DNA of 64,000 bases from Escherichia coli (lineage in GTDB: Bacteria; Pseudomonadota; Gammaproteobacteria; Enterobacterales; Enterobacteriaceae): assembly GCF_030384885.1 (NCBI RefSeq), contig NZ_CP128613.1; one strand, given 5' to 3'. Made by a program: the position numbers. Shown one piece after another: positions 18,001 to 20,898 of the stretch (the first letter of the stretch is position 1; each line of letters opens with the position of its first letter).

Positions 18001-20898
18001 CGCAGCGGAGCTGGCCGGCAACGACACAATTCCGGTAGAAATCACCCGTGTACGTCTGCAACTGGCCCGTAATGAAAACCATGCAGCACGTCACGGCGTT
18101 GATAAGCTGCTGGAAGTTACGCCACGCCATCCGGAAGTATTACGTCTGGCGGAACAGGCGTATATCCGCACTGGTGCATGGAGTTCGCTGCTGGATATCA
18201 TCCCATCAATGGCAAAAGCCCACGTTGGCGATGAAGAGCATCGTGCAATGCTGGAACAACAGGCATGGATTGGCCTGATGGATCAGGCGCGTGCCGATAA
18301 CGGTAGCGAAGGTTTGCGTAACTGGTGGAAAAACCAAAGCCGGAAAACGCGTCATCAGGTGGCGTTACAGGTGGCAATGGCGGAACATCTTATTGAATGT
18401 GACGATCATGATACTGCCCAGCAAATTATCATCGACGGCCTGAAACGCCAGTATGACGATCGCCTGCTGCTGCCGATCCCGCGTCTGAAAACCAATAACC
18501 CGGAACAGCTGGAAAAAGTGCTGCGCCAACAGATCAAAAACGTGGGCGATCGCCCGTTGTTGTGGAGCACACTGGGTCAGTCGCTGATGAAGCACGGCGA
18601 ATGGCAGGAAGCATCGCTCGCCTTCCGCGCGGCGCTGAAACAACGTCCGGACGCCTACGATTACGCATGGCTTGCCGACGCGCTGGACAGACTGCACAAG
18701 CCGGAAGAAGCCGCAGCGATGCGTCGCGATGGCTTGATGTTAACGTTGCAGAACAACCCGCCACAGTAGCTCTTTCTCACCCGGAGGCAAGCACCTCCGG
18801 GGCCTTTCTGATATATAAAAAAACGCCTGCTCTTATTACGGAGCAGGCGTTAAAACAGGTCTGTATGACAACAAGTGGGTGCTTCACTCAACGTTGTGTC
18901 CATGGTGTCTGATGAGGCATAAGCGACATCTGTCAGTGGACGATAAGCACCGTAAACGGCTCTGCGTCATTCCGGAGTTTATGAGGCACTAAGGCGAACA
19001 TAAGAGATGGAATGAGCATCTACTCGTTTATTATGCCACAGAGAACCGGGAAATAACATCCCTTAACACTTGTTATGAGATAATTCTGTAATCCTCTTTG
19101 CTTCCTGAGTAATAACTTCCTGAGTGAATATTTCTCCTGCGCACGATTCTACACATATATATAATGAATAATAAAAGTCATTCAATTAATAACATATATA
19201 TTAATTGCCGTTAAAACTAAAAACAGCATCAATAATCAACGCGATATAACATCACCGCCTTACATATCACCTGCGCCAGAGGTAGGATTGAAAACGCTCT
19301 CCTGATTTTCCAATTCATTATCTGGATAAATAAATAATTTATTTTTATCACTATTATTTATGCAATCATCCTGTCAGGGAGAAGGATCTCAATTATCAAT
19401 GCTTAATTACGTCAACATTTTGACGACATGAAACCGGAGCATTTTGCATGGAATTTTCGTTTTCACCCAAACTTCTTGTTGTGGCTGTCGCCGCCGCTCT
19501 TCCACTCATGGCCAGCGCAGCAGATACCCCGTCAACCGCCACCGCACGCAAAGGCTTTGCCGGATACGATCACCCAAACCAGTATCTGGTTAAACCGGCG
19601 ACCACTATTGCCGACAACATGATGCCGGTGATGCAGCATCCTGCACAAGACAAAGAAACCCAGCAGAAACTGGCGGAACTTGAGAAAAAAACCGGTAAGA
19701 AACCGAACGTGGTTGTTTTCTTGCTGGATGATGTGGGCTGGATGGACGTTGGCTTTAACGGCGGCGGCGTGGCGGTGGGTAACCCTACACCAGATATCGA
19801 CGCCGTTGCCAGCCAGGGGCTGATTTTAACTTCGGCGTATTCTCAACCGAGTTCTTCCCCAACCCGCGCCACGATTCTCACCGGACAATACTCCATCCAC
19901 CACGGCATTCTGATGCCGCCAATGTACGGGCAACCGGGCGGTCTGCAAGGGTTAACCACGCTGCCACAGTTGCTGCACGATCAGGGCTACGTCACCCAGG
20001 CTATCGGGAAATGGCATATGGGGGAAAACAAAGAGTCGCAGCCGCAGAACGTTGGCTTTGATGATTTCCGCGGCTTTAACTCGGTATCTGATATGTATAC
20101 CGAATGGCGTGATGTTCATGTCAACCCGGAAGTCGCCCTGAGCCCGGATCGTTCTGAATACATCCAAAAACTGCCGTTCAGCAAAGATGACGTTCATGCC
20201 GTGCGCGGCGGTGAACAGGAAGCCATTGCCGACATTACGCCGAAATATATGGAAGATCTGGATCAACGCTGGATGGAATATGGCGTTAAGTTCCTCGACA
20301 AGATGGCGAAGAGCGATAAGCCTTTCTTCCTCTACTACGGCACTCGCGGCTGTCACTTCGATAACTACCCAAATGCGAAATATGCGGGTAGCTCTCCGGC
20401 GCGCACCTCTTACGGCGACTGCATGGTGGAGATGAACGATATCTTCGCCAATCTGTATAAAGCACTGGAGAAAAACGGTCAGCTTGATAACACGCTGATT
20501 GTGTTCACCTCTGATAACGGTCCGGAAGCTGAAGTTCCGCCGCACGGTCGCACGCCGTTCCGCGGTGCGAAAGGTTCTACATGGGAAGGCGGCGTTCGTG
20601 TGCCAACCTTCGTTTACTGGAAAGGGATGATCCAACCGCGTAAATCTGACGGTATTGTCGATCTGGCGGATCTCTTCCCTACGGCGCTGGATCTGGCAGG
20701 ACATCCTGGAGCGAAAGTGGCGAATTTAGTGCCGAAAACCACCTTTATTGATGGTGTGGACCAGACATCTTTCTTCCTGGGAACAAATGGTCAGTCTAAC
20801 CGTAAGGCCGAGCACTACTTCCTCAATGGCAAACTTTCTGCTGTGCGTATGGATGAGTTCAAGTATCACGTCCTGATCCAGCAACCGTACGCGTATAC

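Follow-up and report, generated by a model that had tools for sequence, protein, structure and literature searches.

The locus analysed here raises the question of whether a long AT-rich stretch lying between the small RNA (sRNA) gene glmZ and the sulfatase gene aslA of Escherichia coli controls either gene, and how it came to lie there. We addressed this question in a 64,000-nt stretch of contig NZ_CP128613.1 (assembly GCF_030384885.1; hereafter the window, position 1 being its first letter), for which an earlier note made from the sequence alone had named GlmZ and its neighbours and proposed that regulation of the glmZ promoter sits in the AT-rich region and that aslA is likely silenced by nucleoid proteins. 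The observation in that note was confirmed and its interpretation proved half right: with a probability of roughly 0.88, the region is an ordinary, well-characterised E. coli hemY–glmZ–aslA interval with the promoter, spacer, origin and insertion sequence (IS) described below. Transcription of GlmZ runs leftward from a constitutive σ70 promoter that is compact, has an extended −10 and fits inside the first ~40 bp of the spacer, and it ends at the gene's own intrinsic terminator, 30 bp from a separate, facing hemY terminator. The other ~380 bp of the spacer would have no role in glmZ transcription and would constitute the aslA upstream region, an H-NS binding platform. The AT-rich spacer would itself be part of a 3.6-kb aslB–aslA block that lies where other Enterobacterales keep GlrR boxes, IHF sites and a σ54 −24 element, such that only the −10/start region (−17 to +1) of the ancestral promoter would have been retained. 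GlmZ, its promoter and H-NS binding of the spacer were already published; what is new is the structural account of enhancer loss, which is of modest interest.

GlmZ and its promoter

A covariance-model search located GlmZ (SraJ/RyiA; Rfam RF00083, GlmZ_SraJ), a 207-nt sRNA that activates glmS mRNA, at minus-strand positions 18817–19023 with 218.4 bits (gathering score 60, E = 4e-57); the earlier note had given exactly these coordinates. The match spanned the whole model (positions 1–214 of 214), 207/207 bases were identical to K-12 glmZ, and the fold z-score was −3.3; formal alignment to known GlmZ, which the earlier note had proposed as a check, thus left the identification intact. Given the 100% identity to K-12 and published work (PMC4152352), pairing with glmS mRNA, RapZ binding and RNase E cleavage would be expected for this copy as well.

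The glmZ core promoter (19030–19059, minus strand) could be read directly from the sequence as an exact ATGTTA-N15-tggCATAAT, with the −10 hexamer CATAAT at 19030–19035 ending 6 nt before the start site, the extended −10 TG at 19037–19038 and the −35 hexamer ATGTTA at 19054–19059, separated from the −10 by 18 bp. It differed from K-12 by one substitution, at −27 between the hexamers, and was conserved across Escherichia species. Göpel et al. 2011 (PMC3045617) reported this motif as the sole, constitutive σ70 promoter of Escherichia glmZ. In their experiments, mutation of the −35 or the −10 abolished activity of the E. coli promoter, while 5' deletions to −40 retained it, making the DNA upstream of −40, which in the window begins beyond 19063, dispensable. 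These results contradict the proposal that regulation of the glmZ promoter sits in the AT-rich region.

Two other candidates for a glmZ promoter were rejected. A generic σ70 scan returned minus-strand matches at 19392–19365 and 19377–19350, which were no more than shuffles give and lie 340–370 bp upstream of the real glmZ start. The 'glmZ' promoter predicted by Shimada et al. (TTGAGA-17-GATGAT) is an unverified best match that corresponds to a distant minus-strand hit, not to the experimentally defined promoter.

Composition, protein binding and content of the spacer

The spacer from glmZ +1 to the aslA ATG (19024–19447) was 424 bp long, as in K-12, and beyond its first ~40 bp constitutes the aslA upstream/leader region. 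Its G+C content (GC) was 33.5% compared to 51.8% for the window, a value as low being found in only 0.23% of 424-bp windows, with local minima of 0.21–0.29. Runs of at least six A+T bases numbered 17 (12.2 expected from composition, P = 0.02), the longest A+T run was 23 bases (P = 0.008) and TA-step frequency was 0.10 vs. 0.043. The ~420 bp of very AT-rich DNA with short direct repeats described in the earlier note was therefore found, tandem repeat included; of its A/T tracts, the longer A+T runs exceeded expectation, but A4/T4 tracts were not enriched in the spacer. Elsewhere in the 64 kb, 424-bp windows with GC ≤0.36 occurred only at ~49977–50550 and ~50502–51120 (minima 0.32 and 0.35). The spacer was ~96% identical to K-12, with the ~4% substitutions clustered at 19131–19175 and 19253–19260; other Escherichia species carry it colinearly at 76–81% identity. 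It was partly alignable to Pseudocitrobacter, and homology to Kluyvera or Superficieibacter was not detectable.

The expectation of nucleoid-protein binding was supported for the K-12 orthologue both in vitro and in vivo. Shimada et al. 2014 (PMC3946193) found that the spacer between aslA and glmZ binds RpoD holoenzyme and carries an H-NS site in genomic systematic evolution of ligands by exponential enrichment (SELEX). Chromatin immunoprecipitation on microarrays (ChIP-chip) by Myers et al. 2013 (PMC3688515, Table S3) gave an aerobic K-12 H-NS region at U00096.2 3983614–3984895, and anaerobic regions at 3983553–3984164 and 3984258–3985271 that flank and enter the spacer. After conversion from U00096.2 to current K-12 coordinates (offset +1977, checked on two other loci), the aerobic region corresponded to window positions 18583–19864, covering the first 417 bp of aslA, the whole spacer, glmZ and the hemY 3' end. 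The comparison with H-NS ChIP data that the earlier note had suggested thus came out in its favour.

It is probable that H-NS keeps aslA low under laboratory conditions, although several points weigh against extending H-NS binding to silencing here. H-NS occupancy was measured in K-12 rather than in this strain, at the coarse resolution of ChIP-chip, and the aerobic region also takes in the actively transcribed glmZ. The H-NS nucleation motif TCGATAAATT had a single 8/10 match in the spacer (19323–19332) and was not enriched window-wide (68 vs. 58.7 expected). We found no published hns-mutant value showing de-repression of aslA, and the Δhns/ΔstpA tables searched contained no aslA entry; in E. 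coli K1, moreover, aslA mRNA can be measured and responds to induction. The generic σ70 scan also gave no convincing plus-strand aslA promoter. The 'aslA' promoter predicted by Shimada et al. (TTAACA-18-TGTAAT, 19063–19092) was rejected as an unverified best match, located 355 bp from the ATG and without the −11 A. Because aslA is disrupted by an IS in this strain (see below), the question of its silencing is moot here.

Among the other published signals at the locus, a weak FNR peak from ChIP followed by sequencing (ChIP-seq) was recorded at K-12 U00096.2 3984609 (~window 18870, inside glmZ) and labelled '5' of glmZ/hemY' (PMC3688515). Only one of four algorithms called it, its motif score was poor and no change in expression depended on FNR; high transcription of the sRNA gene probably produced it as an artefact, and it was treated as noise.

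The direct repeats noticed in the spacer resolved into a tandem 15-bp repeat at 19101–19130, CTTCCTGAGTAATAA / CTTCCTGAGTGAATA, recovered by repeat search. It spans −78 to −107 from glmZ +1 and 318–347 bp upstream of the aslA ATG, and lies within the DNA dispensable for glmZ transcription according to the published deletions (PMC3045617). The repeat was identical in K-12, and the 51 nt around it were ≥95% identical in 5260/5426 complete E. coli genomes. Other Escherichia species have no second copy in their spacer, which is colinear and equally long; this points to a young, E. coli-specific repeat that would have arisen by substitutions; an inserted duplication was ruled out by the constant spacer length.

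We considered whether the two copies are direct half-sites for a transcription factor controlling aslA, a reading that appears doubtful. In its favour, a 10-nt exact run at the tandem offset arose in only ~1.7% of shuffles, making the repeat modestly improbable by chance, the repeat is essentially fixed in E. coli, and it sits in a stretch invariant between the window and K-12, with variation starting right after it. Direct-repeat sites of response regulators are usually spaced at 10–11 bp, unlike the 15-bp period seen here. The distance to the aslA ATG and the absence of the repeat from E. albertii, E. whittamii and three other Escherichia lineages also argue against such a role, and the repeat has no known factor and no relevance to glmZ. 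An operator for aslA is possible but unsupported, and we retain the account in which the spacer beyond the first ~40 bp would be aslA upstream DNA bound by H-NS.

That the spacer instead specifies a product missing from the annotation, be it a small protein, for instance from a 23-codon open reading frame (ORF) located at 19360–19431 directly before aslA, or a further sRNA, is hardly credible: there are several ORFs of 23–40 codons and a weak terminator-like hairpin on the minus strand (19241–19258), but the 23-codon ORF lacks conservation (its site reads ATG TAA in K-12, and E. albertii has ATA for ATG), a permissive Rfam scan gave no family except GlmZ at E ≤1 in the spacer, and neither K-12 nor the closest genome has any annotation there. 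K-12 engineering uses the aslA–glmZ spacer as a site of chromosomal integration (PMC11186194), which means that strains carrying insertions in it are viable.

Just upstream of the aslA Shine-Dalgarno, 19410–19425 form a perfect palindrome, CGTCAA-CATT-TTGACG. K-12 has two differences at these positions, forming a 7-bp palindrome in a shifted register (GTCATCA-TTT-TGATGAC), and the positions are variable in other Escherichia species too. The palindrome could be an operator or a 5' untranslated region hairpin.

Absence of σ54/GlrR control and origin of the upstream region

A further alternative is that the AT-rich spacer holds glmZ regulatory sites after all, either a σ54/GlrR/IHF-type enhancer or nucleoid-protein sites modulating glmZ. 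We assessed this against GlmZ loci from across the Enterobacterales, of which a GlmZ pattern scan recovered at least 120 (Klebsiella not in the sample). In most genera among the listed loci, the argX-hisR-leuT-proM tRNA cluster ended 145–650 bp upstream of glmZ, and the DNA between cluster and gene held a σ54 element at −27..−12 and two to four GlrR boxes. Among the listed loci, an aslA gene divergent from glmZ at 400–520 bp was found only in Escherichia, Pseudocitrobacter, Kluyvera and Superficieibacter electus. Among the 82 listed loci with enough flank for promoter comparison, which are not phylogenetically independent, all 9 aslA-adjacent loci lacked both the σ54 motif and GlrR boxes and had the lowest upstream GC (0.30–0.34). 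The 73 non-adjacent loci (upstream GC 0.36–0.54) comprised 57 with both features, 5 with the σ54 motif only, 3 with boxes only and 8 with neither.

Enhancer control is thus real in most Enterobacterales, as the 57/73 loci with a σ54 motif at −27..−12 and at least two GlrR boxes show and as reported previously (PMC3045617), and the H-NS ChIP region does extend over the glmZ promoter. The search for σ54 and GlrR-type sites upstream of GlmZ suggested by the earlier note was nonetheless negative. A motif scan found no GlrR box (TGTCN10GACA, ≤1 mismatch) in 19024–19447. The σ54 −24/−12 element (TGGCAC-N5-TTGCA ending ~12 nt before the glmZ start) was absent, positions −27..−12 reading CCCGGTTCTCTGTGGC. 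The only σ54-like match in the spacer (19361–19376) was degenerate, with 2 mismatches and no GG, and lay 340 bp from the start site; window-wide counts of GlrR boxes and σ54 elements were at or below chance. For Escherichia, the IHF sites on either side of the proximal GlrR box have been reported absent (PMC3045617), and no IHF ChIP-chip peak is listed for K-12 coordinates 3983400–3984599 (Myers et al. 2013, PMC3688515). Experiments in E. coli agree, as GlrR failed to bind a glmZ −424..+32 fragment in an electrophoretic mobility shift assay and glmZ was unaffected by ΔglrR, ΔrpoN or GlrR over-expression (PMC3045617). Together with the deletions described above, these data exclude control of glmZ from the spacer in E. 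coli and had already refuted it for K-12, making it very unlikely in this strain. Expecting σ54/GlrR sites upstream of E. coli glmZ is plausible but wrong, and the present analysis corrects it.

Using blastn, we found that homology to the Salmonella and Citrobacter loci extends through thrP and the tRNAs and ends ~40 bp past proM (window ~23876–23883). The proM gene (tRNA-Pro, 23921–23997, minus strand; ARAGORN) is the last of the argX-hisR-leuT-proM cluster and the ancestral upstream neighbour of glmZ. On the glmZ side, blastn homology to the same genera covered only −17..+19, with a break at 19040, and binned identities to σ54-type promoters rose above the null only within −16..−1. Between these limits lies a block (19041–23875) comprising aslB, aslA and the AT-rich spacer, which is present in Escherichia and not in Salmonella or Citrobacter. 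Without the IS it measures 3574 bp (GC 0.50) and occupies the place of 244 bp in Salmonella, from proM to −17, that hold the enhancer and the −24 element. By the extent of these alignments, the glmZ −10 is ancestral and the −35 lies in non-homologous DNA.

Tentatively, and at somewhat less than even odds in our estimation, Escherichia glmZ exchanged σ54/GlrR/IHF control for an unregulated σ70 promoter in a single replacement by the 3.6-kb aslB–aslA block rather than through gradual decay. Replacement of the 244 bp would have removed all GlrR boxes, IHF sites and the −24 element in one step. The ancestral overlapping −10 would have survived it, and the non-homologous DNA would have supplied the −35. 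In the account of Göpel et al. (PMC3045617), the upstream region is simply 'variable' and σ54 control was lost gradually, and their main text draws no relation to the tRNAs or aslBA. If the aslBA block did take the enhancer's place at −17, this would provide a concrete structural reason for the escape of E. coli glmZ from GlrR control and a small example of sRNA regulatory rewiring by gene insertion.

The pattern in Superficieibacter calls for caution here. A σ54-less promoter occurs there both with aslA (S. electus) and without it, and the aslBA junction is at −68, unlike −17 in Escherichia. Enhancer loss and aslBA arrival are therefore separable, and which of the two came first in Escherichia is an inference. 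The proM–glmZ interval looks like a recurrent insertion/deletion site, an insertion hot spot, because the Superficieibacter junction differs, an Rhs-type insert elsewhere spares the enhancer and the interval in the C. freundii group has shrunk to 146 bp.

The Rhs-type insert was seen in Enterobacteriaceae UBA7338 (locus L119), which carried a different insertion of ~3.3 kb between proM and glmZ, from −3284 to −344 relative to glmZ. This insert codes for an RHS-repeat protein of 979 aa, and the σ54 motif and two GlrR boxes remain untouched by it. In the Citrobacter freundii group (loci L003, L008, L025, L026, L064, L117 and L061), tRNA-Pro was ~146 bp from glmZ in those checked and GlrR boxes were absent, with the σ54 −24/−12 motif kept in some loci and lost in others. 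These sequences amount to an independent loss of GlrR control via a shortened proM–glmZ interval. Enterobacterial glmZ also appeared on one contig labelled 'Chryseobacterium sp. 18061' (L087; HemY 91.6% identical to E. coli) and on another labelled 'Alkalicoccobacillus porphyridii' (L118; 279 bp, coverage 1.5), which probably reflect contamination or mislabelling of public assemblies.

Neighbouring genes and the insertion in aslA

Rfam and protein-family matches together with annotation bore out the identities of GlmZ, hemY and aslA and the anatomy of the locus as first described. hemY (17573–18769, plus strand), the last gene of hemCDXY, matched NCBIfam NF008017 (HemY; 828 bits, residues 1–397 of 398) and is annotated as such in matching E. 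coli genomes. It lies directly downstream of GlmZ and convergent with it, and most of the listed GlmZ loci with sufficient downstream sequence likewise had a hemY match in convergent orientation. GlmZ is antisense to its neighbours in the sense that its strand is opposite to both hemY and aslA, but it overlaps neither.

The hemY stop codon and the GlmZ 3' end were separated by 47 bp, a gap in which two separate hairpins face each other. The hemY intrinsic terminator (18780–18810, plus strand), CCCGGAGG-CAAGCA-CCUCCGGG followed by GCCUUUCUG, formed a hairpin at 18780–18801 with an 8-bp G+C stem (−17.4 kcal/mol). It was identified by RNA fold, having failed the strict T-run rule of the terminator scan. 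The GlmZ intrinsic terminator (18817–18851, minus strand), recovered by both scan and fold, had an 11-bp stem and an 8-nt loop, its hairpin at 18822–18851 being followed by a U-run (−19.8 kcal/mol, z = −6.3). The distance of about 50 bp in the earlier note was therefore accurate, but the arrangement is convergent, 3' to 3', rather than head-to-head.

In annotated intact genomes, aslA encodes 'arylsulfatase AslA' of 551 aa. In the window it is interrupted by a 1258-bp IS3-family element (20899–22156, plus strand), which splits the gene at codon 484 as shown by junction alignment against intact aslA. The 5' fragment (19448–20898, plus strand; 483 codons) retains a sulfatase match (Pfam PF00884 Sulfatase, 240 bits), and the ORF ends at 20914 after 488 codons instead of 551. 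The 3' fragment (22160–22364, plus strand; 205 bp) was delimited by alignment to intact aslA, and the two fragments sum to the intact gene length (1451 + 205 = 1656 bp). A 3-bp target duplication, TAC, was present at 20896–20898 and 22157–22159, and the element is bounded by inverted repeats TGTAGTGG…CCACTACA starting with TG. An A6G motif for −1 frameshifting at 21231 joins two ORFs that both match IS3 transposase. The IS–aslA junction was matched across in only 1/5426 complete E. coli genomes, and the window contains no second copy of the element. The check thus also showed that aslA is a pseudogene in this strain, and since it is inactivated by the IS, any control of aslA by the spacer is without protein output here.

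Within the IS, a full-length match to the Rfam family 'isrC' (20967–21089, 145 bits) fell over the 5' part of the first transposase ORF (20935–21282), which suggests that this family models IS-derived sequence and not an independent sRNA gene. Beyond aslA lies aslB (22539–23774, minus strand), an anaerobic sulfatase maturase by annotation and by its Pfam Radical_SAM and SPASM matches.

Comparison with known systems

Compared to the E. coli K-12 glmZ locus (b4456, between aslA b3801 and hemY b3802), the window has the same gene order, strands, promoter motif, 424-bp spacer and tandem repeat, and differs in that aslA is split by the IS3-family element. The spacer also resembles the H-NS-bound AT-rich promoter regions of accessory genes that are subject to xenogeneic silencing, in its 18-point drop in GC, its TA steps and long A+T runs, and in the in vitro and in vivo H-NS occupancy shown for the K-12 spacer. 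It differs from them in that only the leader is AT-rich, aslA and aslB coding GC being ordinary (0.53 and 0.51), and in that a constitutively active glmZ promoter sits at its edge, silencing of aslA being a prediction. In relation to the σ54/GlrR(QseF)/IHF-dependent glmZ/glmY promoters of Salmonella, Yersinia and most Enterobacterales, the sRNA is the same and the −10/start region is shared with Salmonella (TGTGCAATAAT in Salmonella, TGTGGCATAAT here) within the homologous −17..+19. Unlike those promoters, the one described here has no −24 element, GlrR boxes or, according to the literature, IHF sites; the DNA upstream of −17 is unrelated, and aslA stands in place of the proM tRNA cluster.

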